From NCBI GenBank assembly GCA_021772635.1, contig JAJFLP010000113.1, positions 813 to 64,812 on the forward strand: a stretch of 64,000 nt of DNA, read 5' to 3'. This DNA is from Verrucomicrobiota bacterium. Lineage in GTDB: Bacteria; Verrucomicrobiota; Lentisphaeria; JABSQK01; JAJFLO01. The translations under genes were made by a program, and so were the position numbers. Under the pieces are notes generated by a model that saw nothing but the letters and a program-made list of their open reading frames with translations, made no database searches and was not told where the DNA came from. How positions within the stretch are numbered: position 1 is the first letter of the stretch; each line of letters opens with the position of its first letter. This document shows positions 2,336 through 51,268 of the stretch, piece by piece.

Positions 2336-2336
2336 T

Positions 2337-6283: not shown

Positions 6284-6285
6284 TT

Positions 6286-10866: not shown

Positions 10867-10869
10867 TGA

Positions 10870-12099
10870 ATGGGAATACGAATACCCATGAGAGAACCTC
10901 TTCTGATAAAAGTATCCGGGGAAGATAAGCCCGGTGTGACCACCGCTATTACGGCTATATTGGCACGATATAAAATCAATATTCTCGATATAGGCCAGTC
11001 GGTCATTCACCGGCATCTTTCACTCGGTATTCTGACCGATATGCCGCAATCTGCTGAATCTTCGCCGGTGTTGAAGGATCTTCTTTTCCAAATTCACAAA
11101 CTCAAACTTCAGGTAAGTTTTGAGCCGGTAGATGAAGATAGCTACGGACAATGGGTGGATCAACAGGGGAAAGGTCGCTATATCGTTTCGCTGCTAACCC
11201 GCAAGGTCACAGCGGATCAGCTATCCCAGGTCACGGCAGTGGCAACTAAGCATGGTCTGAATATTGACCAGATTAGCCGGTTATCGGGCCGCGTCCATTT
11301 GGACACCGTACACAATCAAGCAAAGGCGTGTGTCGAGTTCTCGGCACGCGGGAATCCGAAAGACCTGGCAGAATTGCGAAACGAATTTTTGGAGCTATCG
11401 CAATCGCTCGATATGGATATCGCATTCCAAACGGATAATATGTTCAGACGCAATCGGCGCTTGGTATGTTTCGATATGGACTCAACATTGATCGAGACAG
11501 AGGTCATCAATGAGCTCGCCAAGAGAGCCGGGGTCGGGGAACAAGTGGCGGCCGTCACTGAAGCTGCGATGGAAGGAAAGATGGATTTCGTCGAAAGCTT
11601 TAAACAGCGCGTCGCCTTATTGAAGGGGCTGGACGAGAAAGTGTTGAAGGAGGTCGCCGAGAGTCTTCCGCTGACAGAGGGTGCCGAAAACCTGGTTAGC
11701 AATTTGAAAAGAGCCGGATACAAGACGGCAATCCTATCGGGAGGATTCACCTATTTCGGAGAGTTTCTGAAGCGAAAATTAGGCATTGATTATGTATTCG
11801 CCAACGTTTTGGACATCGACAATGGCAAAGTAACCGGAAAAGTGGTTGAACCGGTAGTAGATGGCGACCGCAAAGCTGATTTGCTTCGGCTCCTGGCACA
11901 ACAGGAGAGTATTTCACTCGAACAAGTTATAGCCGTAGGCGATGGTGCGAATGATCTACCGATGCTTAGCGCTGCCGGCTTAGGCATCGCGTTTAAGGCT
12001 AAACCGCTGGTTAAAGCATCTGCTAAACAATCCATTTCAACCCTGGGCCTGGATGGAATATTATATCTCCTGGGTTTTAGAGACAGAGATATCGGCTAG
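10870..12099 (+). CDS. serB: Phosphoserine phosphatase SerB with N-terminal ACT-like regulatory domains
   Basis: HAD motifs FDMDSTL and GDGANDLPM with strong overall SerB similarity. Start could instead be the ATG at 10888. Confidence 0.85.
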   Translation: MGIRIPMREPLLIKVSGEDKPGVTTAITAILARYKINILDIGQSVIHRHLSLGILTDMPQSAESSPVLKDLLFQIHKLKLQVSFEPVDEDSYGQWVDQQGKGRYIVSLLTRKVTADQLSQVTAVATKHGLNIDQISRLSGRVHLDTVHNQAKACVEFSARGNPKDLAELRNEFLELSQSLDMDIAFQTDNMFRRNRRLVCFDMDSTLIETEVINELAKRAGVGEQVAAVTEAAMEGKMDFVESFKQRVALLKGLDEKVLKEVAESLPLTEGAENLVSNLKRAGYKTAILSGGFTYFGEFLKRKLGIDYVFANVLDIDNGKVTGKVVEPVVDGDRKADLLRLLAQQESISLEQVIAVGDGANDLPMLSAAGLGIAFKAKPLVKASAKQSISTLGLDGILYLLGFRDRDIG

Positions 12100-12544
12100 C
12101 CTGATCTAGTGAACCCCGTGTACGCACTGAACGTCAAAGTGAATCCCACGGGTTTATCCCGTGGATTGTTCAGTTACTCCTTTCTACGAAGCAGAGAGGA
12201 GCAGCAAGAAAAATATGCCTGCGACTACGACCCTTGCCTTTGCAATTTTCTGTTTCCTGGCGTAGATTAAGGCAACGTTGTTGCGGTGGCAACGAAACGT
12301 TAACTAGTCCTGTCCTGAAATAGCCGATTCGTGTTGATCGGGCGAGTCAAAAGTAGCTCGGCCCCCGCGGTCGCGGGGCCAGGCCTCGCTACGGCGCAGG
12401 CCGGCAGCTGAGTAAAAAACACCCACGCAGTCAGGAGCCGAGCCCCGCAGGCGGGGCGAGACGGGCTGTCCGCGGGACAGAATGAACGCTGTGAATGACA
12501 ATGACCGCGTTACTTTTCTATTTCAGCACAGAAACTAACCAGAC

Positions 12545-12680
12545 CCTGTTCGGAGTCTCTTACCCAATCATTTTGAAGTCGCCTACGCGTAAGCGTCCCG
12601 TACAGACGGGATCCTCGCTCATGCGGGAAGAGTCTCGGATAATCCGGATCGAAAATTATACCGCTTGCGGTATACACTAG
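12545..12680. repeat. Modular intergenic repeat (ends in tataccgcttgcggtata at 12657-12674)
   Basis: Same modules as 10672-10866. The palindrome lies 23 nt upstream of the REC gene ATG. Confidence 0.8.
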
Positions 12681-12697
12681 ACAAGGGGGCACGGACC

Positions 12698-13126
12698 ATG
12701 CGAATTCTAATTGTCGATGATGACGTCCACAATCGCAATCTCTTAGCAGCGGTGTTGAACGATTTTGGCGACTGTATGTTTGCGAGTGATGGCGCGGAGG
12801 CGATTGCTGCTTATCAGCAAGCAATTTCGGAGGGAGTTCCGTATAATCTGATTACGCTCGATATTGAAATGCCGAATATGGATGGTCACGAGGCCTTAGC
12901 CGCCATCAGAAAGCATGAAAAAGACCGGAATATTGCGAGCGAGGATGGTATTGTCGTTATAATGATTTCGGCGTGTGATGATGACGAAAATCTTGAGAAA
13001 TCTTTCAAAGAGGCATGTACGGCATATATCCTCAAGCCAGTTGACCCGGAAAGTTTGATCTCGACGATGAAAAGAATGGGAATCCTCGCCAGCGACAAGG
13101 GGCAATTCGATCCAGGATTCATATAG
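12698..13126 (+). CDS. Stand-alone response regulator receiver (CheY-like)
   Basis: MRILIVDDD...LDIEMPNMDG...YILKPVD receiver-domain motifs with no output domain. Confidence 0.8.
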   Translation: MRILIVDDDVHNRNLLAAVLNDFGDCMFASDGAEAIAAYQQAISEGVPYNLITLDIEMPNMDGHEALAAIRKHEKDRNIASEDGIVVIMISACDDDENLEKSFKEACTAYILKPVDPESLISTMKRMGILASDKGQFDPGFI

Positions 13127-13140: not shown

Positions 13141-13290
13141 CGCCTCCGGCGGTCCGTATGGACGGATTCTTCCGATATCAGCGTGAATCCGGTCAATACG
13201 GGACACTTACGCGGTACGCACGAGCGGACTCCGAGGATGCGGAGAGCGCCAAGGGCGACCAATTTTCGGTCCGGATTCCCGCGCAACCTT
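13141..13290. repeat. Modular repeat fragment (gtccgtatggacgg, acgagcggactccgag modules)
   Basis: Shares the modules found at 18060-18085 and 34741-34770. Confidence 0.6.
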
Positions 13291-17943: not shown

Positions 17944-18115
17944 ATAGTTCCTGCTGGCCAGCAGAACGACGGCTGTTCAATATATCGTTCGGAATCCCTT
18001 AGATGATTTAGGTTAAAAGTCTTCTCTCCGTATTCTCGGAGTCCGCTTGTGCGGACCGCACGAGCGGAGTCCGTCCATACGGACCAAATATTATACTGCT
18101 TGCAGTATAGATCGA
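17944..18115. repeat. Modular intergenic repeat (ctgctggccagcag, ccgtattctcggagtccgcttgtgcggaccgcacgagcgg, tatactgcttgcagtata)
   Basis: Perfect 18-bp palindrome at 18092-18109, 23 nt upstream of the DUF899 gene ATG. Confidence 0.8.
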
Positions 18116-19687: not shown

Positions 19688-19795
19688 TTTTAGACTGTAA
19701 GCAGTCGAATTTTTGGGACGACTTTGAATTTGTCAGCTATAAGATTCCGGTATGAAATTCATCCCGTATGCGAGACAAAGGTGCTCAGTATACGG
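19688..19795. repeat. Inverted copy of repeat 2337-2432
   Basis: The reverse complement matches the tatactgagca...ccggaatcttatagctga.aaattcaaagt...caaaaattcgactgctt.cagtcta modules. Confidence 0.8.
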
Positions 19796-21664: not shown

Positions 21665-21770
21665 TTATACTGAGCATCTTCGAGTTTTCGACCCGGCGTT
21701 CGGAGTCTCTTACGCAATCATTTTGAAGTCGGCCGAAAATTCTACTGCCTGGAGTATACCATTGGCGGCA
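21665..21770. repeat. Modular intergenic repeat
   Basis: ttatactgagcatcttcgagttttcgacccggcgttcggagtctcttacgcaatcattttgaagtc ... tactgcctggagtatacc. Confidence 0.8.
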
Positions 21771-28156: not shown

Positions 28157-30244
28157 CTATAACGCGGATGCGGCTGTCGCAACCTCCTCTGCTGTGGCCT
28201 TGAAGATAAAATCAATCGTCCATTCCATTTTATTTTTGTCTCCAATCATGTCAGTCTCGCTTCGCAAGTCGCCGTGAGCACCTGGCGGAATCCACCACGG
28301 CACCCAGTTTTGTTTTCCGTCGTAAACGTCAGTGGCGTCAACCGAGTAAAAAGCGTCCTCCCCTAAAGTTTTCCGTTCGCGCCGAGTTTTATAAAATTCA
28401 TTGAAGAATTGATCACTCGGGTCATAGGTCTCCGGGTCTGAGGTGGCGACTGGAACTCTCACAAGGTTTTCCCAAAGATAATCTTCCGTCTCTTTGTTAT
28501 ACCAGAAAGCTGAATCAAATGCTGATACCCGAAGCGTGTTCTGAGTCAACCCCTCGTTTCCGATAGCCCGCATGAAATATGCGGGGAAAAATACCGTCCT
28601 CCTTACGGTCGGGAATAGTTCCGGGTTTGACTCTTTCTTGAGTCGTCGATAGGTTTGGCGAAAGTCTAAGTAGGAAAGATTCGTAAGGGCCGTGTCAACT
28701 ATCGTGTTGCAAAAATCTACTGAAGAAAACAATACTCCAGGAAACCAATCCGCGTATACAGTTCTGCACCAGTAACGTGGCACCTGCGCGAACCATTGGC
28801 CGATTCCACTTGGATCAGGTTTCTCCAGTTGCGGATCAAAGTATCGATTATTATTGGCGGCCGCTTGATTGTTAATGAGGATCTGGCTCAGGGAGAATAA
28901 AATACCGTTCGCACTATCATGCCTGCTTGAAACAAACATTTTCGTCCCTATTTTCGCTGCTGTTTCAGCAAATAAATTCCCCTTCCTTCTTGATTCAAAT
29001 ACCACGTCTTTTGTCGTTTGTATTGATTTGCTTAATCCCTGTTTGACGGGACCAGCCAGAGATTGCACTCTTTGCACTAATCCGCGTTGTACCGGTTCAT
29101 TTGCGTTTGCGTCTGTATTCGCGTTTTCGATTTTGGTTTCGTTTGTGCTTGCGCTCAGAGATACAGGAACATAATCGTTGTTTGGATAAAGTTCGGTCGC
29201 GCGCATTGCCGCATTGAATAGAATCATAGAGTCGATATAAGGATGATTGGTGGCCCGGCCTTCCAGGTGACACTCGCGATGCTCCTCGGACTCGACAACG
29301 CCGTTAGAAAGATCGCAACCTTTGCAAATACTCGGCTCTAGAGTAGTGCCGCTTGGTGCCGAACACTCCTTAGTTGTTATACCCTTAACGGCGATTCCAT
29401 ATTCTTGAGCCTTGACCAAACGTTCGCATGCGTCGAAAGACGCTAGAGAAATCAACTTCGCACCGTAGCTATGGCCGACCGTGTGTAACTTATAACTTTC
29501 ATGAAATCGGCGGCGAATTAAATAATCCAAGATTGCGGACAAGCTAATTCGCGGACCATGCATCCCTGGCTCGTCGATACCAAAAGCTTCGCTGTATGAG
29601 TTAAAGATCCCGTCCTGCACCTGCTCTCTAGTCGTAAGTAAAGATAAGTATTTTGAACGCTCACCTTGCAAGCCGAAATAGTCCTGAAGATCCACTGATT
29701 TCGCACTGGCTCGCAATTTTCTTTCTTCTGTGATAAGTCTTCCTATCGCGATCTCAGATGCATTTTGGGTTTCTCCCCAACCGGTCGCGACCTGAAAAAG
29801 TGTATCCCCGACAGCGGCAGGCAGTTCAACGACACCGGGAAGATCGAACGGGTACATTGAGTTCAGCCAGTTCGTTAGGGGTCGGGATGCGGAATCCCAT
29901 ACAACAAAAATTACATAAGGATTAAAGGCGCGATCCACTGACTGAATCTGTTGAAAACGTCGAGTTATAGTCTCCAGGTACGCTTGCCACAGAGTGAACG
30001 ACTCTGCATGGGTAAAGTTCCATCCGTGGCTTATCACATAGATGTCCGATATCGGTTTTCCGGTTTTCTTCGCAAAACTTAATCCGAGCTCAAGCCGGGG
30101 TATTGGTGAATAGATCAGGTCATTAGCCTTATTATAAATGGCGTACGAATGCTTTAATCCCGCATCGCTTTGATGGGGATTGATGGTCATGGATTGGCAC
30201 CCGGTGAACAGGATTGTGAGCAAACAGAAGATCGTATAGCGCAT
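28157..30244 (-). CDS. Large lipoprotein with alpha/beta-hydrolase (GHSYG lipase/esterase) motif
   Basis: Lipobox LFTGC. Nucleophile-elbow motif GHSYG. 695 aa, otherwise unassigned. Confidence 0.55.
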   Translation of the reverse strand: MRYTIFCLLTILFTGCQSMTINPHQSDAGLKHSYAIYNKANDLIYSPIPRLELGLSFAKKTGKPISDIYVISHGWNFTHAESFTLWQAYLETITRRFQQIQSVDRAFNPYVIFVVWDSASRPLTNWLNSMYPFDLPGVVELPAAVGDTLFQVATGWGETQNASEIAIGRLITEERKLRASAKSVDLQDYFGLQGERSKYLSLLTTREQVQDGIFNSYSEAFGIDEPGMHGPRISLSAILDYLIRRRFHESYKLHTVGHSYGAKLISLASFDACERLVKAQEYGIAVKGITTKECSAPSGTTLEPSICKGCDLSNGVVESEEHRECHLEGRATNHPYIDSMILFNAAMRATELYPNNDYVPVSLSASTNETKIENANTDANANEPVQRGLVQRVQSLAGPVKQGLSKSIQTTKDVVFESRRKGNLFAETAAKIGTKMFVSSRHDSANGILFSLSQILINNQAAANNNRYFDPQLEKPDPSGIGQWFAQVPRYWCRTVYADWFPGVLFSSVDFCNTIVDTALTNLSYLDFRQTYRRLKKESNPELFPTVRRTVFFPAYFMRAIGNEGLTQNTLRVSAFDSAFWYNKETEDYLWENLVRVPVATSDPETYDPSDQFFNEFYKTRRERKTLGEDAFYSVDATDVYDGKQNWVPWWIPPGAHGDLRSETDMIGDKNKMEWTIDFIFKATAEEVATAASAL

Positions 30245-32989: not shown

Positions 32990-33014
32990 CATAAATATTG
33001 TGGTATCCTTCTTA

Positions 33015-33190
33015 TATACTGCAAGCAGTACAATTTTTCGACGACTCAATCGTGGTAGCGTATGGGATTCCGAGCAATATTTCTCTCCGTATTCTCGGAG
33101 ACCGCTCGTGCGGACCGCATAAGCGAGGGTCTCGGGTAATCCGGACGAAAACTCGCTGACGAATTATGATACCGACAGCGAAGGAACTAT
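33015..33190. repeat. Modular intergenic repeat beginning with palindrome tatactgcaagcagtaca
   Basis: The palindrome at 33015-33032 lies 25 nt upstream of the srkA start on the minus strand. Followed by the ccgtattctcggagaccgctcgtgcggaccgcataagcg and gggtaatccggacgaaaac modules. Confidence 0.8.
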
Positions 33191-34125: not shown

Positions 34126-34710
34126 ATGGAAAGATCAGCTAAGAAAAGAAAGCGTAGACCTAATACTTCCGACGCGCGATTACTGTTTGTATCGATTATT
34201 GGACTCGCTTTACTATTCGTTTTTTTGATTAATTTGCCGATAGCGCAAAACCTGCTCCTGGCAGTTGATAAATTTACGGCATTCACATTTTCTACATTGA
34301 CTAACGCTTTCGGTTACGAGTCCCAATTGAGTGACATATTGGTGCGAATCCAGGCTGACAATACGACAAGGTCCGTGGTCATTGGTTACGGTTGTGACGG
34401 AGTGCTGGCTTATCTGATTTTGCTTAGCGCAATCTTGCCTTTTCCTTGCCGAAAGTGGTATAAGGTCATCGGCGCACTCGTAGGCATGGTATTTGTTTTC
34501 ATCATAAACCAAATTCGTTTGGCCGGGCTTACGGTCGTTCTGTTCAAATTGAAGGACTTGTCAGATTTTGAGTTGTACCACGTTGGGTACGGGCAGGTAT
34601 ATGCGATTGTAATGGTCTTCCTGTTTTGGTCTCTATGGGCATCTCAAGTCGTAAAACGAGGGCGACGCTCAGGAGATAAAATGCCGCGCGCGGCAGCCGC
34701 CGGCGAATAA
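34126..34710 (+). CDS. Small polytopic membrane protein, exosortase/archaeosortase-like core (tentative)
   Basis: Five predicted TM helices. Cys in GYGCDG and an NQIR motif resemble the exosortase Cys/Arg signature, though at 194 aa it is much shorter than canonical exosortases. Confidence 0.35.
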   Translation: MERSAKKRKRRPNTSDARLLFVSIIGLALLFVFLINLPIAQNLLLAVDKFTAFTFSTLTNAFGYESQLSDILVRIQADNTTRSVVIGYGCDGVLAYLILLSAILPFPCRKWYKVIGALVGMVFVFIINQIRLAGLTVVLFKLKDLSDFELYHVGYGQVYAIVMVFLFWSLWASQVVKRGRRSGDKMPRAAAAGE

Positions 34711-34711
34711 A

Positions 34712-34985
34712 TCTATACCGCAAACGGTATAATTTTTGGTCCGTATGGACGGACTCCGCTCGTGTGGAGAAGACTTTTAACCTGTCACCTAAGGGATTCC
34801 GAACGATATAGACTGCAAGCAGTCGAATTTTCGATCCCGCATGCGGAATCACGGTAGGCAAATATTTTAGAAAACTTGTCGGCGTGTGTCGCGTTGCGAC
34901 GACGTCGCTCACGCGAAAACCTGACTGGAGTTGGTATATTTTTATCCGGTATTCTGCTGGACAGCAGAACGGGGAATTAAACCCA
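34712..34985. repeat. Modular intergenic repeat (composite, approx. 270 bp)
   Basis: tataccgcaaacggtataattt, gtccgtatggacggactccgctcgtgtggag, agactgcaagcagtcgaattttcgatcccgcatgcggaatc and ttctgctggacagcagaac. Confidence 0.8.
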
Positions 34986-35020
34986 CTGGTGGGATTAACC
35001 CACTGCTCAACCGAGCACGC

Positions 35021-35665
35021 ATGACCAAATCGACCGATATGACCTATGACGTCGATAGCATCCTGTCGTCAAACTTTCCTTCTCGACGGCAGTTCTTAAT
35101 CGGGTTGTTCAAAGTACTTGCAGGGGTCGTGTCGCTACTCCTGGTGTGGACACAGACACCGATCGGAGACGCTGTTGTCGGATGTTTCAAGTCGACGAGC
35201 CGCGCCACGACCCGATTATTGGAGGAAGAAAAATCGACCGTTAAGGCATCCAATGTACGCAATGAGTTCGGTGTGTTGGTTGAGCGGAGGGAAGTACATG
35301 TTGTGCGGGACAATATTGAAGCGGAATTGAACCCCTGTTACTACTTGACAGTTTTTATCCCCGCGGTAATCGCTTTACTATTCCCCACGATATCACTAAC
35401 GATAACTGCGATTCGAGTAGGGCTGGGAACGGTCTTTATGGCCCTCTACCTTTACGGTGCGACGGTAATTTTTTCGTACCTGCAGTTTCACCGCCTGTTG
35501 CCGGAGTCATTCATGGCGGGCGTTCTCTTATCGCTTTCCTTCATCGTCATGCCAATAGCAAGCCTTGGCGGGGCTGTAATGTCCTACGGCTACTGGTGTC
35601 GACGCCGCGATAGGATTTCTGAGCCCTTCAGCAGCAAGAAAAAATCCGCGAGAACTAAACGGTAG
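35021..35665 (+). CDS. Hypothetical polytopic membrane protein
   Basis: Four or five TM helices. Start set at the ATG at 35021 because the upstream part of the ORF-track frame is repeat sequence. Confidence 0.45.
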   Translation: MTKSTDMTYDVDSILSSNFPSRRQFLIGLFKVLAGVVSLLLVWTQTPIGDAVVGCFKSTSRATTRLLEEEKSTVKASNVRNEFGVLVERREVHVVRDNIEAELNPCYYLTVFIPAVIALLFPTISLTITAIRVGLGTVFMALYLYGATVIFSYLQFHRLLPESFMAGVLLSLSFIVMPIASLGGAVMSYGYWCRRRDRISEPFSSKKKSARTKR

Positions 35666-35679: not shown

Positions 35680-36723
35680 TTAAGAGATCTGCTTCTCTTG
35701 CGCGGATTTACGCGTTTGTTCCGTTACCAATTGCTGCAAATGCTCGAATGACTTAAGGTTTGATGAGCCTTCAATGGCCTTTACGGCGATATCCTGAACC
35801 TGACTCGATGCTTTGTCCGCCTGTTCAGAAAGTATGGATAGACGTTTGTTTTGCTCGGAAATCGCTTGTTCCAGGGATTCAATTCGTGCCTTGAATACAT
35901 TGCGCTCACCCTCGAATTCCTTGGTCGACAAGTCTTCCCGATTTTTTGTTTCCTGTTTGATTCTCTCTGTTACTTCCTTGACGGCTTTGGTTACTTCTGT
36001 TTCAAGCGCCTTCGGAAATGTCTCGGCCTTCGCTCGCAGTTCTTCCAGTTCGCTTTCCCGATCGTTTAGGGTCTTTTCGCGCTCGGCAAACTCGACTTCT
36101 AATTGGTTTCGTTTCTCTTCGATTTCTCTTTCCAGCTTTGCTTTCTCGTCGTCAAACTTGTCTTTTGCAAGCTGACGTTCCCGATTATACGTATACTCGT
36201 ATTCTTCTTTTTCCTTTTTCCAATTCTCTCGAGTTGTTTCTATCTGTCGCCCCAGCTCTTCTGTACGCGAATTTAATTCCTGTTCCAGCGCGTCTTTTCT
36301 GGAAACCATTTCCGTTTCGAATTCGGCACACTTCTGATTCTGTGCTTCGAGCAGAGCGGCCAGACTTTGAGCGGACTTCTGAATCTCATATATCTCGTGA
36401 AGCTCATCCTCTTTTTCCTGAATCGCCCTTTTTATTTGAACATACTTGTTGATCTCCTGCTCCATTCGGTCTGACAATTCGCTCAGTAATCTGGCCGCTT
36501 CACCCTTTATTGAAGTCGCATTTTTCATGATGCTGTCCATGGAAAGCGAGTCCGCAATATTAACCGCTTGGAGGGCCTCTTTTTCCCTGACTTTCTCTTC
36601 AGGGCGCAATTCGGATTCCCGCTGTGCTTCGATCTGCTTTACTAAATCGCCGTAAGCGTCCAGAAGTTGTTGTTTAGTGTTCGAACTTGACACCTTTTTT
36701 GGTTGAACTTTTTTTTCAGCCAT
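35680..36723 (-). CDS. E/K-rich coiled-coil protein, function unknown
   Basis: Long heptad-like charged sequence. Start MAEKK at 36723. Confidence 0.5.
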   Translation of the reverse strand: MAEKKVQPKKVSSSNTKQQLLDAYGDLVKQIEAQRESELRPEEKVREKEALQAVNIADSLSMDSIMKNATSIKGEAARLLSELSDRMEQEINKYVQIKRAIQEKEDELHEIYEIQKSAQSLAALLEAQNQKCAEFETEMVSRKDALEQELNSRTEELGRQIETTRENWKKEKEEYEYTYNRERQLAKDKFDDEKAKLEREIEEKRNQLEVEFAEREKTLNDRESELEELRAKAETFPKALETEVTKAVKEVTERIKQETKNREDLSTKEFEGERNVFKARIESLEQAISEQNKRLSILSEQADKASSQVQDIAVKAIEGSSNLKSFEHLQQLVTEQTRKSAQEKQIS

Positions 36724-36740
36724 GGTACATATCCCTTTTA

Positions 36741-36947
36741 TATACCGAACGTCTTCATCCCGCATGCAGGATGAAAAATCGTTCGGAGTCTCTTACACAA
36801 TCATTTTGAAGTCGTCTCTCCGCATTCTCGGAGTCCGCTTATGCCGCCGGCACAAGCGGACTCCGAGAATGCGGAGAGAAATATCGTTCGAAATCTTATT
36901 CGCGGTGAGATTCAGGTCGTTCAAAACCTCAACTGCTTGCAGTTTAT
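36741..36947. repeat. Modular intergenic repeat with a long internal palindrome (ctccgcattctcggagtccgcttatgccgccggcacaagcggactccgagaatgcggagag)
   Basis: MITE end tataccgaacgtcttc. Roughly 60-bp near-perfect palindrome at 36826-36888. Confidence 0.8.
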
Positions 36948-37094: not shown

Positions 37095-37586
37095 TTGCCG
37101 AATGATTCATTTTTCAGGAAATACCGTCACCGTCGATTACCCAAGATCAATTTCCATTTTCATGAACTCACGGTCGACAATAAGGCCGTTGTCCTTTTGG
37201 AAATTGGGGCTGCTTTTCGGCATCCGGTGCAGTTCAAGAATACAGAGTACATCCGTATCGGTTCGTATAAGAAGAAACTCAAAGATTTCCCCGAGAATGA
37301 GCGCGAACTATGGCGTGTATTCGATAAAACGCCATTCGAACAGGAGATTGCCGCAGAAAACGTGAGCTCCGATGAGTTCCTCCGCCTATTGGACTATCCC
37401 AGCTTTTTCGATCTTCTACAATTACCATTACCGGAATCGCGAGAAGGCATTTTGGGCGGATTGGAGGCAGAGGAAATGATCGGGCAAAGTCAAAGCGGCA
37501 ATTGGAATATTACGAATCTTGGAGCCGTATTGTTCGCAAAGAAACTAGCTGACTTTCGTACATTAAACGCAAAGCAGTCCGTGTAA
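37095..37586 (+). pseudogene. Fragment of an AlbA_2/Schlafen-like domain regulator, truncated at both ends
   Basis: YIRIGSYKKKL... segment resembles the distal AlbA_2 domain. The ORF stops abruptly where the rpsO 3' duplicate begins. Confidence 0.3.
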
Positions 37587-37587
37587 T

Positions 37588-37696
37588 TTAAGCCGCTTTA
37601 TGATGTCCAGATACCGCGTGTGCGCAGTGCGATTGAGGTACTTAGGCAATTTCCTTCGACGATTCACCACAGCAATAAGCCCACTTCTTGAATGGG
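37588..37696 (-). pseudogene. Duplicated fragment of the rpsO 3' end (approx. 109 bp, about 90% identity to 40232-40340)
   Basis: Direct alignment of ...gccgctttatgatgtccagataccgcgtgtgcgcagtgcgat.gaggtactta.gcaatttcc... Encodes an S15 C-terminal peptide, ...[24 protein letters not shown]. Confidence 0.8.
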
Positions 37697-37882
37697 AGGT
37701 ACAATAATCGGCCGAGCAACAGAAATTTAATGATGCAGGACAATGCGAGCTGCGCGTCGCACGGGTACTGACCGTCGGGCGATTGGACGACGATGTCGCG
37801 GCACCCGCAACTCTATCGTCGCAACAACAACGGCTGGACCAGTTGGAGCAGTTGCGACGCACCACAACCGAAGGACTGGGAT

Positions 37883-38010
37883 ATGATTATCCAGAACGAC
37901 TTTCGCGAGTTCTTGAAATTGCTGAAGGACGATGACGTCGAATTCGTGATTCTTGGCGGGTACGCGCGCCGGGACAACGATTCACCGAGCCCCTATCGCA
38001 AGAGCCAAAT
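37883..38010 (+). pseudogene. N-terminal fragment of a nucleotidyltransferase-fold protein (tentative)
   Basis: MIIQNDFREFLKLLKDDDVEFVILGGYA is a typical NTase-family N-terminus. The frame then runs into a repeat element and terminates. Confidence 0.3.
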
Positions 38011-38120
38011 AGATAGACTGCAAGCTGTCGAATTTTCGATCCCGCATGCGGGATCACAGTAGGCAAAGATTTTATGAAACTTGTCGACAGCCTGACTGGA
38101 AGTTAGGATAGTAGCGACGG
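38010..38120. repeat. Modular repeat (agactgcaagctgtcgaattttcgatcccgcatgcgggatc...ggcaaagattttatgaaacttgtcgacagcctgactggaagttagg)
   Basis: Near-identical to 34812-34935 and 51177-51268. Confidence 0.8.
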
Positions 38121-38143
38121 GTAACGACGGAGCACCGACTTGA

Positions 38144-38737
38144 ATGCATCCTCGCGTAAACGAATTACATAATATCATGCCGATTGATAACATTCCTTCG
38201 GTATTACGATATGGAATATTGTCAAACAATCGAGCCTCGAAGTTACACCACCAGTCCATTGCAATGGATGAAATTCAAGACCGCCGGGATAAGATCAGAA
38301 TACCGGGCGGATCAAAATTGCATCACTACGCAAACTTATATTTCGACGCGCGCAATCCGATGATGTATAAACGGAAAGAAAACGCGAGTGATCTGTGTAT
38401 ATTGAGAGTATCAGCGGACGTGCTTAAAATTGACGGAACAGTGATTGCGGACAGGAATGCGTCCAGTGACTATGTCCGGTTCCTGTCGCCGGATGCGTTA
38501 GAGCAACTGGACTTTGACATGATTTTTGCCGCCGACTGGAGACACTCAGACGAGATTGCATATTATAAACACCGATCAATCAAATGTGCGGAGGTCCTGA
38601 TACCGGACTATATAGATGTTCATTATATAGTCGGTGCCTTTGCGGTAAACGACAAAATCGCGAGTACGTTGAGGAAGGCGGGGTTCATGTTACAAATTGA
38701 CGTAAATCCATATCTTTTTTCAGTGAGTGACGGATGA
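38144..38737 (+). CDS. darT: DarT ssDNA ADP-ribosyltransferase toxin (DUF4433)
   Basis: Collinear similarity to characterised DarT (IMPIDNIPSVLRYGIL, IAMDEIQDRR, HHYANLYFDARNPMMY, catalytic-Glu context KCAEVLIP). Its stop overlaps the darG start. Confidence 0.75.
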   Translation: MHPRVNELHNIMPIDNIPSVLRYGILSNNRASKLHHQSIAMDEIQDRRDKIRIPGGSKLHHYANLYFDARNPMMYKRKENASDLCILRVSADVLKIDGTVIADRNASSDYVRFLSPDALEQLDFDMIFAADWRHSDEIAYYKHRSIKCAEVLIPDYIDVHYIVGAFAVNDKIASTLRKAGFMLQIDVNPYLFSVSDG

Positions 38738-39846
38738 TTAAAGTTAAAATAGGCGATTTATTCGAAAGTCAGGCAACGACGCTTGTTAATACGGTGAACT
38801 GCGTCGGAGTGATGGGGAAAGGAATTGCCCAGGAATTCAAAAAACGATTCCCGGAAATGTTTAGTGATTACGCGCAACGATGCAATCTAAACCGTGTTGT
38901 TCCTGGTGTTCCCTATTTATACACAGACCTTCTTGGAACATCAATTATAAATTTTCCAACCAAGAAACATTGGCGATCACCGTCACGCATCAGCGACATA
39001 ATTCATGGGCTTGATGTTTTTCTGAATGAATATGAAAAATGGAATATCGACTCGGTCGCATTCCCACCACTGGGTTGTGGAAATGGCGGACTTGAGTGGA
39101 GCTTGGTAGGTCCAATTATATACCAAAAATTGTCCGCTGAGAATATCTCTGTTGATTTATTCGCCCCGTATGGAACCCCTAAAAAACAACTCTCAATTGA
39201 TTTTCTTGAACAACCGGTGGATCGAGACGATTCAGTTAAGGGGCATACTCAACGGAAATTCAATGTCGCATGGGTCGCCTTACTAAACGTCATAGATGAA
39301 CTCCAGAAGCAACCCTATGCCAATCCAGTAGGACGAACGATTTTTCAAAAAATCTGCTATGTAATGACTGAATTGGGGCTGGAAACCGGATTCGAATTTA
39401 GGCAAGGAAGCTATGGACCTTTTTCGCCAGAGGTTCAGGATACATTGAGTGTCTTTGCCAATATGAATCTCGTACAGGAACAACAGTTGGGACGAATGAC
39501 CGCACTTAAAATCGGACCCGAATACAAGACTATATTAACTCAATATGCTAATCAGCTATCCCAATATAATGACAAAGTAAGGAAGACCGTGGATTTATTC
39601 AGTCGCGTAAAAAGTACAAAGCAGGCGGAAGAGGTAACGACGGTTCTTTATGCTGCACGCACGTTAAAAACTGAAGAAAACAAAAATTCCGTTACTGAGC
39701 AGGATATTTTCGATTTTATTATCGACTGGAAGAAAACATGGACAGGTCAGGAGAAGCGAAACTCTATCGTAAAAGCGATTCGTAATCTTGAAGTGCTTGG
39801 ATGGTTACGACTGAAGTACAGCGAATCTCTACCACAGCCTGAATGA
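38734..39846 (+). CDS. darG: DarG antitoxin (N-terminal macrodomain + C-terminal DarT-binding region)
   Basis: Macrodomain motifs LVNTVNCVGVMGKGIAQEF and PPLGCGNGGL. Total 370 aa. Confidence 0.75.
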   Translation: MIKVKIGDLFESQATTLVNTVNCVGVMGKGIAQEFKKRFPEMFSDYAQRCNLNRVVPGVPYLYTDLLGTSIINFPTKKHWRSPSRISDIIHGLDVFLNEYEKWNIDSVAFPPLGCGNGGLEWSLVGPIIYQKLSAENISVDLFAPYGTPKKQLSIDFLEQPVDRDDSVKGHTQRKFNVAWVALLNVIDELQKQPYANPVGRTIFQKICYVMTELGLETGFEFRQGSYGPFSPEVQDTLSVFANMNLVQEQQLGRMTALKIGPEYKTILTQYANQLSQYNDKVRKTVDLFSRVKSTKQAEEVTTVLYAARTLKTEENKNSVTEQDIFDFIIDWKKTWTGQEKRNSIVKAIRNLEVLGWLRLKYSESLPQPE

Positions 39847-39973
39847 CTTCATCCATACTCCATTGTCTGCGAACGTCAATGCGCCCAAGGATAAACTTTT
39901 TTTTCGGTGGAACTGGGTTGTGGATTTAGACAGACGATCGAAGTCAGATCAGTTCGGGAAGGATAAGGAAGAG

Positions 39974-40050
39974 TGGTAGCGGGTCAGGGATTCGAACCCC
40001 GGACACGTGGATTATGATTCCACTGCTCTAACCAACTGAGCTAACCCGCC
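39974..40050 (-). tRNA. tRNA-Met (anticodon CAT; elongator-type or tRNA-Ile2)
   Basis: Hand-folded cloverleaf: acceptor GGCGGGT/ACCCGCT with G1-U72, D-arm GCTC/GAGC, anticodon stem GTGGA/TCCAC with loop ATCATAA, T-arm CGGGG TTCGAAT CCCTG, encoded 3' CCA. Confidence 0.8.
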
Positions 40051-40217
40051 GAACACGTGTAACGTGGCGTGTATTGCGTGGTGCGTTTGACGATCACGGA
40101 TAAGCGTTGCGATATAAATAACAAGAATTCGCCTGAACGATACGCGAGGGGATAATCCAAGTGTCGGCTGAAATATCATCGGGAAAGTTATATCCGCAAG
40201 TAAGCGCGGTCGTCCCG

Positions 40218-40481
40218 TTAACGTCTTAACTTTAGCCGCTTTATGATGTCCAGATACCGCGTGTGCGCAGTGCGATCGAGGTACTTAAGCAATTTCCGTC
40301 GGCGATTCACTAACGCTATAAGCCCACGTCTTGAGTGGTGATCTTTCGGATGCTCCTTAAGATGTTCCGTAAGTTCCTTGATCCTCGCAGTAAGTACCGC
40401 GATTTGGACATCCGAAGATCCGGTATCCTTATCATTGACACCGTGCTTCTTGATAATCTTCGTTTTTGCTGACTTCTCCAT
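40218..40481 (-). CDS. rpsO: 30S ribosomal protein S15
   Basis: ...[46 protein letters not shown]... Confidence 0.9.
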
Positions 40482-40631: not shown

Positions 40632-41642
40632 CTATTCATTGCTGAATTCTATCAGCGCTTCGAGTTTACGCATGGCGTTTCCGGAAGCGATTGACTCGCG
40701 GGCTGCTTCGACGGCCTGCGAAAAGTCCGTGTCGGCACCGGCAATATATATCGCGGCGGCACCGTTGAGTACCGCGATCTCTTGTCTGGCGCCGCCCCGA
40801 TTCTTAAGTATCTCGCGCAGTAAATGCGCGTTTTCCCGGGCATCGCCGCCTTTGATCACCTCGGGTGATTGGTAGCTTCCTATGTACGGTAGCGGGTCGA
40901 ATTCATATGTTTCAACTTCTCCGTTGCGCAACTCGGAGATCTGGGTTTTGTCAGTCACTGTAATTTCGTCTAAATGATCAAGACCGTGAACAATCAAGGC
41001 GCGTTCACACCCCAGTTTATTTAGGACTTCAGCGAATCGCGACGTCAGATTTTGATCGAACACACCCAGGACATGGCGCTTCGCACCAGCCGGGTTAGTT
41101 AGCGGTCCGAGCATATTGAACATCGTTCGAATCCCCAATTCCCGTCGCGGCCCGACCGCAAATTTCATGGCGGGATGTAAAGACGGTGCGAATAAGAATC
41201 CAATACCGATTGCCCGAATGGATTCACTTACTTTCGCAGGGTCGATATTAATGTTTACGCCAAGTTCGGCTAATACATCCGCGCTTCCACATTTACTGGA
41301 AACCGATCGATTCCCGTGTTTCGCTATCGGGACTCCCGCGCCAGCTGCTATAAACGCAGCCACAGTTGAGATATTAAATGTATTCGCACCGTCACCGCCG
41401 GTGCCGCAGGTGTCGACGATCGGTATAGCACCCGCGTCAATTGACGTTGCGTGCTTCCGCATGATCCGTGCTGCCGCTGTTATTTCATCCGTACTTTCTC
41501 CCTTCATTCGAAGCGCGACCAATAATGCACCGACCTGTGCCTGCGTGAGTTCACCCGTCATCAGCTGATTCATGATCGATTCCATCTCAGCTTGATCTAG
41601 ATCATTGCGCTTGGTTAACTTTTCGAGAATTTCTGAGAACAT
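40632..41642 (-). CDS. trpD: Anthranilate phosphoribosyltransferase
   Basis: VDTCGTGGDGANTFNIST and KHGNRSVSSKCGSADVLE motifs. Confidence 0.9.
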   Translation of the reverse strand: MFSEILEKLTKRNDLDQAEMESIMNQLMTGELTQAQVGALLVALRMKGESTDEITAAARIMRKHATSIDAGAIPIVDTCGTGGDGANTFNISTVAAFIAAGAGVPIAKHGNRSVSSKCGSADVLAELGVNINIDPAKVSESIRAIGIGFLFAPSLHPAMKFAVGPRRELGIRTMFNMLGPLTNPAGAKRHVLGVFDQNLTSRFAEVLNKLGCERALIVHGLDHLDEITVTDKTQISELRNGEVETYEFDPLPYIGSYQSPEVIKGGDARENAHLLREILKNRGGARQEIAVLNGAAAIYIAGADTDFSQAVEAARESIASGNAMRKLEALIEFSNE

Positions 41643-41721
41643 GGGAATGGATTTTCGATTGACGATTTTCGATTGACGATTGAGGCTGCAAGAATTTTAG
41701 AAATCGCAATGTCGTTCTGTG

Positions 41722-42345
41722 TCAGTTGGCCGGTACTGCCGCACCGCGGGCTGAGGCGATAAAATTCTTAACTTTCGTATGGTTCTTGATCCCTTTACTT
41801 TCTTCAACGCCTGATGATACATCGACTCCATACGGTTTTACGGTTCGAATGACGTCGGCAACGTTACCAGAATTCAAACCACCTGCTAGAAACACCGGTC
41901 TCACCTCGGCTGCTTGCCGAGCTAAATCCAGATCCCCAAGCTTTCCAGTTCCACCGTAGGTGTCGCCGGGTGTGTCAATCATCATAGTGCAACCGGGGAA
42001 TTGACTAAGTTTTTCCAAGTCCACGGTCGTTTCAAGTGAAACGGCCTTTATCACGTTGTCGAACCTTAAGTCGGCGACCTGGTCAGGGGATTCAGCGCCG
42101 TGCAGCTGCAATACATGTAGCCGACAGAAGAGAGCGATCTCGAGCATATCCTCATTTGGTTCATTGACGAATACCCCGACATTCTTCGCCTCCGATGGCA
42201 ACTTCATAATGATTTCACGAACTTTCGCCGGCGTAACGTACCGCGGCGACCCGATATGGAATATATACCCCAATAAATCGGCCCCGTTCTCAACCGCGAA
42301 CACTGCATCACTTAAATTGGTAATACCGCAGATCTTTACTTTCAT
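41722..42345 (-). CDS. trpF: Phosphoribosylanthranilate isomerase
   Basis: MKVKICGIT... TIM-barrel PRAI signature. Confidence 0.8.
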   Translation of the reverse strand: MKVKICGITNLSDAVFAVENGADLLGYIFHIGSPRYVTPAKVREIIMKLPSEAKNVGVFVNEPNEDMLEIALFCRLHVLQLHGAESPDQVADLRFDNVIKAVSLETTVDLEKLSQFPGCTMMIDTPGDTYGGTGKLGDLDLARQAAEVRPVFLAGGLNSGNVADVIRTVKPYGVDVSSGVEESKGIKNHTKVKNFIASARGAAVPAN

Positions 42346-42358
42346 GGCGACAGTGATA

Positions 42359-42400
42359 GTTGCTGAGTTGCTGGGTTGCTGGGTTGCTGGGTTGCTGAAT
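42359..42400. repeat. Tandem 9-mer repeat (gttgctggg x4, first unit gttgctgag)
   Basis: Seen directly in the trpG-trpF spacer. A separate 2x14-nt tandem (attttcgattgacg) lies at 41652-41680 in the trpF-trpD spacer. Confidence 0.8.
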
Positions 42401-42619
42401 AATAATCTACTTTACGTTTATCTAATCCGAGCCTGATCTATGCATCAATTTCGTTACGAGAGCTTTTAGCTGGCCTGAGATCCGTGAGTTACGAAGGTTG
42501 TACGGCTGAAGAAATATTGAAATATTTTAAGGTCGTACGTTCTTTGTAACTCATTTATATTAGGCCTGATACATGCTCGCAGTAGAAACTTTATGCATAG
42601 ATGAGGCTAGCCTGAAAAA

Positions 42620-43186
42620 TCAGATCATTTCGATAAAATTCTCCATAATTTTCCCGCCGTCCGGGGTCAATACCGATTCCGGGTGGAACTGTACGCCAAC
42701 TGTCGGGTGATCTACATGCCGAACCCCCATGATCTCTCCGTCATCGGCGTGGGCGATCACTTTCAGACATTCGGGAAATCGATCGCGATCCCCGACTAAC
42801 GAATGGTAGCGACCCGCTTCGAACGGGTTCGAGATGTTCTTGAATATCGGATCTCCATCATGTGTAATCTGCGATGTCTTACCATGCATGATTCGCTTCG
42901 CGTGGATAATAAAGCCTCCGAACACCTGGATAATAGACTGATGCCCGAGACACACGCCGAGTACGGGGATTTTACCGGAGAAGGCTCGAATCGTGTCGAT
43001 GCTTATACCGGCTTGATCAGGGGTACAAGGTCCGGGCGAAATAATCAACGCGGACGGCTTTTTATTCTCGATTTCGTCCACGGTTATCGTATCATTTCTG
43101 AACACATCGATTTCAACGCCCAACTTACCCATCTCTTGAACGAGATTGTAGGTAAACGAATCGTAATTGTCTATCATTATTATCAT
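42620..43186 (-). CDS. trpG: Anthranilate synthase component II (glutamine amidotransferase)
   Basis: GATase-1 motifs PVLGVCLGHQ and HPES. Confidence 0.85.
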   Translation of the reverse strand: MIIMIDNYDSFTYNLVQEMGKLGVEIDVFRNDTITVDEIENKKPSALIISPGPCTPDQAGISIDTIRAFSGKIPVLGVCLGHQSIIQVFGGFIIHAKRIMHGKTSQITHDGDPIFKNISNPFEAGRYHSLVGDRDRFPECLKVIAHADDGEIMGVRHVDHPTVGVQFHPESVLTPDGGKIMENFIEMI

Positions 43187-43320
43187 GTTGCTGTCGTCTC
43201 TTTCGATATAAACGCTGAGTCTCGCGGCTCCGTTCGAATTTCCGGATAAAACAAGGGGTACAACGATAACTTTTCGCGTGACGATATTTTGATAACACCA
43301 GTGCGATCAGCGTAAGGGCG

Positions 43321-44826
43321 TCAGCGGAGTTTTGACTCGTTCTCCGCGAGTTCAAGCGCGCGCCGCATACCGTTACTTTTGTGTATCGTCTCCTGATACT
43401 CGTTTTCAGGCTGGCTATCATAAACGATTCCGGCACCCGCTGTCACTGTTGCCTTATTTCCGTTTAAGATAACTGTTCTGATCGTTATCGCCATATCCAT
43501 GACCTCTCCGCCATAGGCGATGTACCCGAGAGCCCCGCCGTAGGGCCCGCGCGGAATCGGTTCAAGCTCGTTGATAATCTCCATCGCCCTGACTTTGGGC
43601 GCACCCGACAGAGTCCCTGCCGGGAATGACGCTTTAAGTACGTCAATTGCGTCTAACCCTGAATTTATCCGACCTTCAACTTGCGATACCAAATGCATGA
43701 CGTGCGAATATTTCTCGACAGTCATATATTCGACCACATCCACAGAGCCGATCTCCGCAACCCGACCGAGATCGTTTCTCGCCAAGTCAACGAGCATCAC
43801 ATGTTCCGCCCTCTCCTTGGCGTCGGCGAGAAGGTCGGCGGCGAGCTCTCGGTCTTGTTGCGCGTCAATGCCGCGTGGTCGGGTGCCGGCAATCGGCCGG
43901 ATTTCAGCACGATCGTGTGTCACCCGCACCATTACCTCGGGCGATGAACCCGCGATTGCGCGAGTAGAGTCCAGTTTTAGAAAGTACAAATACGGTGACG
44001 GATTAACATACCGCAGAGCACGGTAAACGTCGAAAGCGGCGGCGCTAATCTTCGCAGTAAAATGCTGCGCGAGAACTACTTGAATTATATCTCCATCACA
44101 AATATAGCGTTTCGCCTTGCGGACCATCTCTCGATATTCTGCAGGTGTCATATTGGAAGACAAGTCCACGCGGCTTTCGCCATCCGGTTCAGCGAATGAT
44201 TCTTGCGTTCGATCGACGTCACCTGTCTCACTCCCGGTGGTTACGAGTCTCTCCAATTCTTCGAGTGATGATTTCCCATTTCGGTAAGCATCTGCTGGGC
44301 TCGGATAGTCGCCGATATGTGAACAGTAGATTAGCTTCACGGTTTTCTTTAAGTTATCGAACACCGCGAGTTGATCGGCAACCATAAAATGGGCATCCGG
44401 GAAAACGCCATCTCCGGGCATCACCTCACCGCACCGCTCGAAAAAGCGGACGGCCTCGAACGAGAGATAGCCAACCAGCCCACCGTAAAATCGCGGTAAC
44501 CCCGGGACTGATGCGACTTTTGAACTGCGCAGATATTGTTGTAACACGTCGATCGGGTTGCCGCTTAGTTCCTGACGTTCCTGGTTCGCGACGAGGTAAG
44601 CCTTCCCGCCTTCGATTATGAACTCCTTCGCGATATTCAGTCCAAGAATCGAAAATCTTCCCCAGCTCTCACCGCCTTCGACGCTTTCTAACAGAAAAAA
44701 TCGTTCTTGCTCGCTGAATCTCGCCGCGAGGGAGATCGAAGTTTCACGGTCTGCGGGAATCTCTTTCGTTAACGGGATTACATTGCAATCCGTCGCTAAT
44801 TCGGTGAATTGTTGTAGGGAAATCAT
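43321..44826 (-). CDS. trpE: Anthranilate synthase component I
   Basis: Chorismate-binding enzyme motifs across 501 aa. Confidence 0.9.
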   Translation of the reverse strand: MISLQQFTELATDCNVIPLTKEIPADRETSISLAARFSEQERFFLLESVEGGESWGRFSILGLNIAKEFIIEGGKAYLVANQERQELSGNPIDVLQQYLRSSKVASVPGLPRFYGGLVGYLSFEAVRFFERCGEVMPGDGVFPDAHFMVADQLAVFDNLKKTVKLIYCSHIGDYPSPADAYRNGKSSLEELERLVTTGSETGDVDRTQESFAEPDGESRVDLSSNMTPAEYREMVRKAKRYICDGDIIQVVLAQHFTAKISAAAFDVYRALRYVNPSPYLYFLKLDSTRAIAGSSPEVMVRVTHDRAEIRPIAGTRPRGIDAQQDRELAADLLADAKERAEHVMLVDLARNDLGRVAEIGSVDVVEYMTVEKYSHVMHLVSQVEGRINSGLDAIDVLKASFPAGTLSGAPKVRAMEIINELEPIPRGPYGGALGYIAYGGEVMDMAITIRTVILNGNKATVTAGAGIVYDSQPENEYQETIHKSNGMRRALELAENESKLR

Positions 44827-50059: not shown

Positions 50060-50150
50060 GAGTATACTGCAGGCAGTACAATTATTGAAAGCCTTCAAAC
50101 TTTCCACCTAAGGGATTCCGAGCGATATTTCAAGAACTCAATGGCGCTGG
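50060..50150. repeat. Modular repeat (atactgcaggcagtacaattattgaaagcc...aagggattccgagcgatatttcaagaactc)
   Basis: Shares modules with 34780-34810. Confidence 0.7.
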
Positions 50151-51169
50151 GTATACAACCCGCTACATTTTCCGATTTCTACTTACTTGAGACTATGGGA
50201 CTATTCACAAAAGACATTCACCCTTTGGAAGCGTACGTTCAAGGCGGGTTTCTTTGCTCGAAATGCAAAAAATTCATTGAGCTCGAAGGTTTACATCCGC
50301 TTGAAATGGGCCGCTGTCCGTATTGCGATACGCCGAACTTCATACCACAACGTATAAGCCAGTTTTGGTTATTTTACCCGCTTGGCGGCGGTGGTATGGG
50401 TGCGGTTTACAAGGCATATCATGAGGACGTCCGTGACGAGTTCTTCGCCGTAAAAGTACTCCCTCGGGAAAAAAAGACAGACCCGGAACTAATAGAGAAT
50501 CTTCAGTTGGAAGCTACCACGGTCACAGCGCTTGGATCACATCCGTGCATAATTGGCGGCATTGAGACGGGTTTCGAGGATGGCGAACACTATCTCGCGA
50601 CACAGTTCATTTCCGGCGAACGCCTGGACAAAAGAATCGATCGCCTCGGGAAACTGCCGGAGTTTGAAGTGGTCTCTATCGCCCTTCGCCTATTATCCGC
50701 GGAAGCGCATATTTACAACCAGGGTTTTCTCTTCCGCGATATGAAACCTGAGAACGTCATGATCACAGAGAAAAATGGTGCGTATCTTTATGACTACGGG
50801 ATTTGCCTCGACGTTGAAGAGGCGCAGAATCAGGCGGGGGATTATGTTGAGGGATCGCCGTTTTACATGCCGCCTGAACGCTTGTCCGGCGGCACCGAAG
50901 GAGCATATAGCGAAATCTACAGCCTCGGGATGGTACTTTATAATACCCTCGCGGGGAAAACATACTTCTCTGCAAAAGAGTTGAAGGAATTGGCCCGCAA
51001 GTTGGTGCAATCGGTGCGGTTGTCGAATATGGACAGCAAAATGAAAGCGATCACTCCGGAGCTCGCCATGATTATTGATAAAATGATTAAACGTGATCCA
51101 GAGAAGCGGTACCAGAATTTTGCGGACGTGGAAAAGGACTTCATTATATTTTTAAATGGGCAATTTTAA
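50142..51169 (+). CDS. Ser/Thr protein kinase with N-terminal zinc ribbon
   Basis: Zinc ribbon CSKC...CPYC. Kinase motifs GGGGMGAVYKA, AVKVL, FRDMKPENVMI. Start placed after the repeat element, at 50142. Confidence 0.7.
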
Positions 51170-51172
51170 ATA

Positions 51173-51268
51173 ACTAGACTGCAAGCAGTCGAATTTTCGA
51201 CGATCTCTTGCCATGGTAGGCAAAGATTTTAGAGAACTTGTCGAAAACTTGACTGGAGTTAGTATATC
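51173..51268. repeat. Modular repeat (agactgcaagcagtcgaattttcgacg...ggcaaagattttagagaacttgtcgaaaacttgactggagttagtat)
   Basis: Near-identical to 38010-38120 and 34812-34935. Sits immediately after the kinase stop, so it may act as a terminator. Confidence 0.8.

Follow-up and report, generated by a model that had tools for sequence, protein, structure and literature searches.

We analysed a stretch of 64,000 nt (the window; all coordinates are positions in it unless another contig is named) from a Verrucomicrobiota bacterium of the GTDB lineage Bacteria; Verrucomicrobiota; Lentisphaeria; JABSQK01; JAJFLO01, which corresponds to positions 813 to 64,812 of the forward strand of contig JAJFLP010000113.1 (GenBank assembly GCA_021772635.1). 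The subject is a toxin-antitoxin cassette, darT-darG (38144-39846), which is bracketed by a fragment of the ribosomal protein gene rpsO on the left and by the intact rpsO, with a neighboring tRNA-Met gene, on the right. The cassette is probably a DarTG2-class module carried as cargo of a hot spot adjacent to the tRNA-Met gene, and the displaced piece of rpsO is probably debris of an old rearrangement, not the footprint of an integrase acting on rpsO. An initial annotation, made from the sequence, had read the same region as a site-specific integration into the 3' end of rpsO.

The two genes of the cassette are co-oriented on the forward strand. darT comes first (38144-38737) and encodes a protein of 197 aa, a predicted DNA ADP-ribosyltransferase toxin of the DarT2 type; darG follows (38734-39846) and encodes 370 aa, a predicted macrodomain ADP-ribosylglycohydrolase antitoxin with a C-terminal domain. 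The initial annotation had described both genes as intact and overlapping, and the list of open reading frames (ORFs) together with the sequence bears this out, with a 4-nt ATGA overlap at 38734-38737. The profile searches suggested there as a check gave matches for both proteins. DarT was recognized by the Pfam DarT family PF14487 (DUF4433; E value 4e-38, 131.6 bits, cut-off 22.5) and by the DarT model of PADLOC (3.8e-38). DarG matched Pfam Macro (1e-16), the PADLOC DarG model over residues 1-353 of 370 (4.6e-93) and the NCBIfam model antitoxin_DarG over residues 2-352 (283 bits, above the cut-off of 250). It is a two-domain protein, as the model matches reach past the macrodomain into the C-terminal part.

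DarT was aligned to the crystallized Thermus DarT (7OMV), the Thermosipho DarT-DarG fusion (7OMU) and three close homologues, and the roles of its residues (R51, Y71, M78 and E160 in Thermus numbering) were taken from a review (PMC9967889). The catalytic residues are all kept: R48 (R51 in Thermus), Y66 (Y71), M73 (M78) and E150 (E160). The first three are invariant across the two crystallized DarTs and the three close homologues. The catalytic Glu, whose absence would have spoken against the assignment in the initial annotation, is present as E150; it lies within a KCAEVL motif common to the three close homologues and aligns with the E-to-A site of 7OMU. In the comparison of DarG with PDB entries 5M31 and 5M3I, the segment NFPTKKHWR with the catalytic Lys (K80 in Taq DarG) and the GNGGL loop were found to be kept. 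We concluded that, as judged from their sequences, DarT and DarG are a genuine pair with intact catalytic residues and predicted activity.

A macrodomain antitoxin is the hallmark of the DarTG2 class, which modifies thymidine in single-stranded DNA, while the NADAR-type DarTG1 class modifies guanosine (PMC11543638). Since the antitoxin here is a macrodomain DarG and not a NADAR/YbiA-like protein, the module does not belong to DarTG1. By analogy with the family, DarT would transfer ADP-ribose from NAD+ onto the N3 of thymidine in single-stranded DNA and thereby block replication; the DarG macrodomain would hydrolyze the adduct by means of the catalytic Lys of its FPTKKHW segment, and the C-terminal domain would additionally neutralize the toxin. 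Should the supply or the activity of DarG fail, for example in phage infection, the DNA would become modified and the replication of phage and host would both be halted.

DarG homologues number more than 6600 at E values of 1e-30 or lower and are spread over several phyla, the closest at 69% identity. The closest homologous pairs (L095, L096 and L097) have the same darT-darG order in unrelated contexts, and the module thus appears to be an ordinary, mobile DarTG2-class cassette. On contig L097, the darT-darG pair of a 64%-identical homologue (within 1393-12990) is placed between hsdM/hsdS and a gene for a 1069-aa hsdR-like protein, and thus sits within a type I restriction-modification locus or operon. 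Homologues of the macrodomain part of DarG only were present on four large viral contigs of IMG/VR (L083-L086, 82-170 kb), at 7675-8181 of L083 and at 10001-10483 of L084-L086, with 41% identity over residues 1-146 or 1-164. Orphan phage antitoxins to DarT have been reported for other phages (PMC13309987, PMC11825919); the viral homologues seen here could be further candidates for phage-borne orphan antitoxins of this kind.

To the right of the cassette, on the reverse strand, lie the tRNA-Met(CAT) gene (39974-40050; called by ARAGORN and by Rfam RF00005 tRNA with 65 bits), the intact resident rpsO (40218-40481; ribosomal protein S15, 87 aa, Pfam Ribosomal_S15 over its full length at 1.2e-33) and trpD (40632-41642), the last identified within the conserved flank VWA-trpE-trpG-trpF-trpD-rpsO by the gene order in relatives. 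The contigs of seven relatives, chosen by S15 proteins that are 67-77% identical to that of the window, were compared with this arrangement. rpsO is followed by tRNA-Met(CAT) in six of the seven loci (L087, L089, L090, L091, L092 and L094). Five of these six have trpD upstream, and four (L087, L089, L090 and L091) have the whole VWA-trpE-trpG-trpF-trpD-rpsO-tRNA-Met block. The tRNA-Met gene is 97.6-98.6% identical to that of the window in the two loci compared (L087 and L089). As rpsO and tRNA-Met stand together in all six loci, the tRNA is ancestral at this position and is not cargo. The initial annotation was thus right that the bracketed segment contains a tRNA-Met(CAT) gene, but not in counting it among the inserted genes.

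The conserved block ends abruptly. Nucleotide similarity of the window to L087 and L089 ceases no more than 5 nt from the tRNA 3' end, and the gene content past the tRNA is different in each of the five relatives that extend beyond it. darTG was found at the post-tRNA position in none of the six related loci. A duplication of rpsO, sought with each locus's own rpsO over ~8-10 kb past the gene, was found in none of L087, L089, L090, L091 and L094; L092, which ends ~0.7 kb past its tRNA, was left out of this search. For the rpsO-tRNA junction, therefore, the related genomes show the unduplicated order that the initial annotation had itself named as a sign of ancestral context rather than insertion. 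By its S15 and TrpD homologues, the genome of the window belongs to Lentisphaerota (Lentisphaeria / Victivallales). With TrpD as the query, a scan of GTDB species yielded no match above 56% identity, and rpsO was beside trpD in 0 of 80 loci.

Past the tRNA-Met gene, the relatives carry differing toxin-antitoxin or defence genes. In L087 it encodes a DUF6538 integrase N-terminus, an antisense 23S_rRNA_IVP protein, a 485-aa Phage_integrase ORF, HicB, ParB and MazE-PIN, and then a polyketide synthase. In L091 a DUF6538 fragment is followed by ParDE and a DDE transposase gene of the insertion sequence type; in L090 there are a DDE transposase gene of the same type, ParDE and a SEFIR/TIR protein; and in L089 genes for HATPase_c_4, an AlbA_2 protein and a 1736-aa helicase were found. 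In the L087 arrangement (10648-12950), the antisense 23S_rRNA_IVP gene, which encodes a four-helix bundle, parts the DUF6538 ORF from the 485-aa Phage_integrase ORF; these are either a split integrase or two separate genes. L090 (10800-15600) and L091 (10900-15600) have identical S15 and ~97% identical trp flanks and differ downstream of tRNA-Met: a 2.1-kb segment with the DDE transposase gene is inverted between them, and the SEFIR/TIR-domain gene adjoining ParDE in L090 is without an equivalent at the corresponding place in L091.

An integrase gene or remnant thus stands directly after the tRNA in two relatives (L087 and L091) and is absent from the window. From the integrases at this place and the end of similarity at the tRNA, it follows that mobile DNA in this clade enters after the tRNA and not in rpsO. 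No integrase domain was detected among the ORFs scanned between ~20 and 46.6 kb (about 10 kb around the segment), and tblastn searches of the window with the L087 integrase catalytic ORF, the L091 DUF6538 ORF and the relatives' AlbA_2 proteins gave nothing significant. The 25-mer at the tRNA 3' end had no second match in the 64-kb window when up to 3 mismatches were allowed, and blastn-short of the tRNA-Met 3' end gave no match above chance in the window or in L087.

Because darTG is absent from this position in all relatives and has a lower G+C content than the flank (41-44% for the cassette, 48-53% for the trp/rpsO flank), we consider it acquired. In the relatives, toxin-antitoxin and defence genes abound at this position, which makes an acquired defence islet a reasonable description, and this part of the initial annotation stands. 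The sequence of events that we favour begins with a variable region that would start right after the conserved trpEGFD-rpsO-tRNA-Met block of a Lentisphaerota genome. The cassette would have arrived by horizontal transfer into the hot spot downstream of tRNA-Met, which holds tyrosine-integrase islands in two relatives, and its vehicle would since have been lost. Deletions and the small repeat elements of the genome itself may later have remodelled the area. The rpsO fragment, 2.3 kb further on, would derive from the rpsO of this lineage or of a very close relative; either a duplicative insertion or a flank that was transferred too could have left it behind, with a subsequent deletion in which the AlbA_2 gene described below was cut as well.

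The rpsO fragment forms a direct repeat with the resident gene. The repeat is 112 nt long, and its copies lie 2643 nt apart on the reverse strand, at 37584-37695 (left) and 40227-40338 (right); the initial annotation had reported it correctly as real and rpsO-derived, with boundaries 4-5 nt further to the right. Alignment of the two segments, also suggested there, gave 100 of 112 identical positions with a perfect core of 43 nt. The right copy is codons 49-85 within intact rpsO. The left copy (Pfam S15 at 4.5e-8 on the containing ORF) likewise comprises codons 49-85 only; since codons 1-48 with the start are missing, as are the stop and the two codons before it, it is non-functional, as had been proposed. 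A tblastn search of the window with S15 found only these two places, with no third copy. The copies differ in 11 codons, 7 synonymously and 4 non-synonymously (ratio of the non-synonymous to the synonymous proportion, pN/pS, ~0.2; Fisher P = 0.013). Three of the four amino-acid changes in the left copy (R52S, L57V and L65P) are absent from 120 S15 homologues, and two of these positions are nearly invariant among them, which marks relaxed constraint on this copy. Both copies have a 10-residue lineage-specific motif that is absent from the closest S15 homologues listed, which places the origin of the fragment in this lineage or in that of a very close relative. The three unseen substitutions, taken with the residues shared with the resident rpsO, make it an old pseudogene fragment. 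The excess of synonymous differences is compatible with a foreign functional rpsO and with slow decay alike and does not decide between them.

The left copy is surrounded by further fragments. An internal fragment of an AlbA_2 (Schlafen-like) gene at 37095-37586 on the forward strand (Pfam SLFN_AlbA_2 PF04326 at 2e-5, profile positions 67-117 only) aligns over its residues 15-160 to residues ~95-240 of homologues of ~485 aa; since this is the interior of the homologues, the gene has lost both of its ends. The 3' truncation falls no more than 3 codons from the repeat edge, and the first three bases of the repeat supply the stop TAA of the fragment (37584-37586). The truncation at the left boundary that the initial annotation had pointed out is thus real, and it is accompanied by a cut at the 5' end. 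The latter is adjoined by a cluster of interspersed repeats (36741-36947), a second family with more than 10 related places in the window. Between the left copy and the cassette lies a filler of ~54% G+C with a short ORF start from 37883 (37696-38006), which matched no Pfam or NCBIfam family; the nucleotidyltransferase-like gene fragment that had been placed there (~37883-37970) could not be confirmed, and a tblastn search of plasmids also gave no significant match.

Just upstream of darT, at 38007-38110, is a 104-nt interspersed element of the miniature inverted-repeat transposable element or repetitive extragenic palindromic (MITE/REP-like) type with the palindrome GATCCCGCATGCGGGATC, which had been recognized as a MITE copy from the outset. 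Related copies occur in at least five other places in the window (34808-34881, 92%; 51168-51266; 9445-9524; 2405-2430; 19691-19713), and none was found in ~117 kb of the six related loci. At least three families of such short, partly palindromic intergenic repeats, one of which carries GATCCCGCATGCGGGATC, are scattered across the window, at 2362-2430, 6204-6272, 9445-9524, 10672-10861, 12548-12674, 13218-13246, 17981-18112, 21697-21731, 33014-33125, 34711-34946, 36741-36947, 38007-38110, 50089-50128 and 51168-51266. As they are absent from the ~117 kb of the six related genomes, the families are lineage-specific, and the presence of a genome-specific repeat inside the segment argues for long residence. 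We concluded that the intact cassette adjoins a patch of gene debris and host repeats, which extends from 36.7 to 38.1 kb. Further to the left, between this patch and an exosortase-like ORF (34126-34710), lie two ORFs with no Pfam, NCBIfam or PADLOC family: one for a 361-aa Glu/Lys-rich, coiled-coil-like protein (35680-36765, reverse strand) and one for a 244-aa predicted membrane protein (34931-35665, forward strand).

Several observations weigh against the reading that we favour. With regard to the class, the NCBIfam model toxin_DarT is the top match of DarT, but its 114 bits are below the equivalog cut-off of 150, and the protein has Asn at the positions of Thermus H13 and H119. His is likewise absent at both positions in the three closest homologues and in the Thermosipho protein 7OMU, and the change is therefore a subfamily trait and not decay. 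With regard to the route of entry, no integrase, no tRNA-derived attachment-site (att) repeat and no genome with an empty site were found for this lineage, so that the route is read from relatives with only 67-77% S15 identity. The remaining two points concern the repeat. The direct repeats bracket the cassette exactly, and all differences between the copies lie outside the 43-nt perfect run, which is somewhat longer than expected by chance (P ~0.025, a value which, like the codon-position statistics, rests on 12 differences, too few to choose between foreign origin and local decay). Such a run would fit a crossover or gene conversion within the repeat. Exact bracketing and a crossover-like core together possibly fit a duplicative integration at rpsO.

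The latter is the core of the explanation given in the initial annotation, in which an element with an attP that mimics the rpsO 3' end, tRNA-Met and darTG integrated into rpsO and restored it, leaving the displaced native end behind, and its integrase was later lost. The bracketing repeats, the perfect core between diverged arms, the low G+C of the cassette and the AlbA_2 gene cut at the repeat edge are all in its favour. Yet rpsO-tRNA-Met is ancestral in the six loci and the duplication was seen in 0 of the 5 searched; as the tRNA is ancestral, such an element would have had to bring a tRNA-Met and spacer of its own, and a later deletion, which would also have cut the AlbA_2 gene, would have had to remove the native tRNA. 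The displaced copy, cut at both ends, also lacks the native stop and downstream DNA and abuts the interior of the AlbA_2 gene, unlike the product of a simple att duplication. Its sharing of lineage-specific residues with the resident gene means that it is not a broadly conserved attP. Neither an integrase nor a remnant of one was found near the segment, a search of the JGI metagenome and IMG/VR collections with a degenerate pattern for the shared rpsO core gave no match and thus no other carrier, and no relevant description of rpsO as an integration site turned up in the literature searched. We consider integration targeted to rpsO, and with it the subsequent loss of an integrase, unlikely.

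About equally likely, and still rather improbable, is an exchange that needed no site-specific recombinase: homologous recombination through shared rpsO sequence with the rpsO-tRNA-Met region and island of a close relative, or a local duplication, with later deletions in either case. The lineage-specific S15 motif in the left copy speaks for such an exchange, the 43-nt perfect run agrees with homologous crossover or gene conversion, and the synonymous excess fits divergence between functional genes. Rapid turnover at this place is illustrated by L090 and L091, which despite their identical S15 already differ here by inversion and gene content. On the other side, no donor sequence and no second tRNA-Met copy or remnant was found, both cuts can be explained only with one or more additional deletions, and the 12 differences are too few to separate this model statistically from the others. 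A Campbell-type duplicative insertion followed by deletion is possible and needs extra steps. We regard as very unlikely a variant in which the rpsO 3' end is the attachment site of a small element of an undescribed kind that lacks an integrase or is mobilized in trans, and that carries tRNA-Met and DarTG and restores rpsO; if this were true, the essential tRNA and the toxin-antitoxin pair would make repeat-mediated loss of the element lethal. Thus we still prefer cargo of the tRNA-Met-adjacent hot spot, with the rpsO fragment as debris.

The repeat could also have been produced by the assembly, through a chimeric metagenome join that created the rpsO fragment on the left or linked it to darTG. 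The 147-kb contig was indeed assembled from a metagenome, run SRR15505516 contains a second species that has the same block of genes, and short repeats occur at 38007-38110 and in the core. However, the core of the left copy is flanked on either side by mismatches unique to this copy, and the copy is truncated both left and right; one switch within the core could not have given this pattern, and a swap of arms would break the rpsO-tRNA-Met arrangement that is conserved in the relatives. The rpsO of the co-occurring species is only ~69% identical in DNA. Logan contigs, assembled independently from run SRR15505516, span 38028-40021 and end at 40247, which is 30 nt inside the identical 43-nt core; a break at this point is expected of a k=31 graph if the repeat is real. 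A simple assembly chimera is unlikely on these grounds, and an artefact of any of these kinds is the most improbable of the explanations weighed here. The DarG and TrpD of the window were found only on short Logan contigs of the same run, and an exact-protein look-up of its S15 gave no match, so that there was no near-identical genome in which to look for an empty site.

Some features of the conserved flank deserve mention. The product of rpsO ends in a normal LRR, as in its closest homologues listed, and a promoter-like site lies at 40568-40541. The genes at 40632-44826 (reverse strand) lead to rpsO in the order trpE, trpG, trpF (PRAI), trpD, with no trpC between trpD and trpF. The position of trpF 5' of trpD is common to the Lentisphaerota relatives, and the distant genomes of the TrpD scan have trpF downstream of trpD. 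The gap between trpF and trpG (42430-42608) contains a 75-nt inverted repeat, 71% complementary with a 29-nt loop, which may be a further repeat-element insertion within the operon. The usual partner of rpsO is pnp. It was sought in the window and is absent; a pnp-sized ORF of 695 aa (28157-30244, reverse strand) matches none of the Pfam families. The rpsO-pnp pair does occur in L093, which is more distantly related.

The analysis adds one more DarTG2 cassette, from the poorly sampled phylum Lentisphaerota, and it shows that, downstream of trpEGFD-rpsO, a hot spot next to tRNA-Met gathers toxin-antitoxin and defence genes in related genomes. It should be of use for annotation and for surveys of defence-island hot spots and raises no new question on DarTG or on mechanisms of integration. 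The rpsO pseudogene fragment is a small curiosity that bears on how such hot spots are remodelled.

Integrative elements that target and restore the 3' ends of protein-coding genes are known for some ribosomal-protein genes in Firmicutes. The locus resembles them in that a repeat from the 3' part of a ribosomal gene brackets foreign genes and the gene itself is intact. It differs from them in that the repeat ends two codons short of the stop codon, the displaced copy is truncated on either side, the bracketed tRNA is ancestral at its position, and neither a recombinase nor a second example was found here. The locus also resembles tRNA-associated islands with tyrosine integrases: the variable region starts from the tRNA 3' end, its content varies between relatives, an integrase or its remnant follows the same tRNA in two relatives, and the cargo consists of toxin-antitoxin and defence genes. 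Unlike these islands, the window lacks both an integrase and a repeat of the tRNA 3' end, and its sole flanking repeat derives from the upstream rpsO.

Among the toxin-antitoxin systems, DarTG1 (DarT1 with a NADAR antitoxin) has a toxin from the same Pfam family, whereas here a macrodomain DarG takes the place of the NADAR/YbiA-like antitoxin. The DarTG2 systems of Thermus, Mycobacterium tuberculosis and enteropathogenic Escherichia coli (7OMV, 7OMU, 5M31, 5M3I) are close counterparts. The present DarT is only 33-34% identical to the crystallized DarTs, has Asn for Thermus H13 and H119, as in its own subfamily and the Thermosipho fusion, and scores below the NCBIfam equivalog cut-off; its host is an uncultured Lentisphaerota lineage, and the activity of the module is predicted. 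In common with these systems, it has darT overlapping the darG that follows it, a DarT fold signature with the R, Y, M and E residues, a two-domain DarG that retains the macrodomain Lys and matches the DarG models over their full length, and neighborhoods of the defence type.

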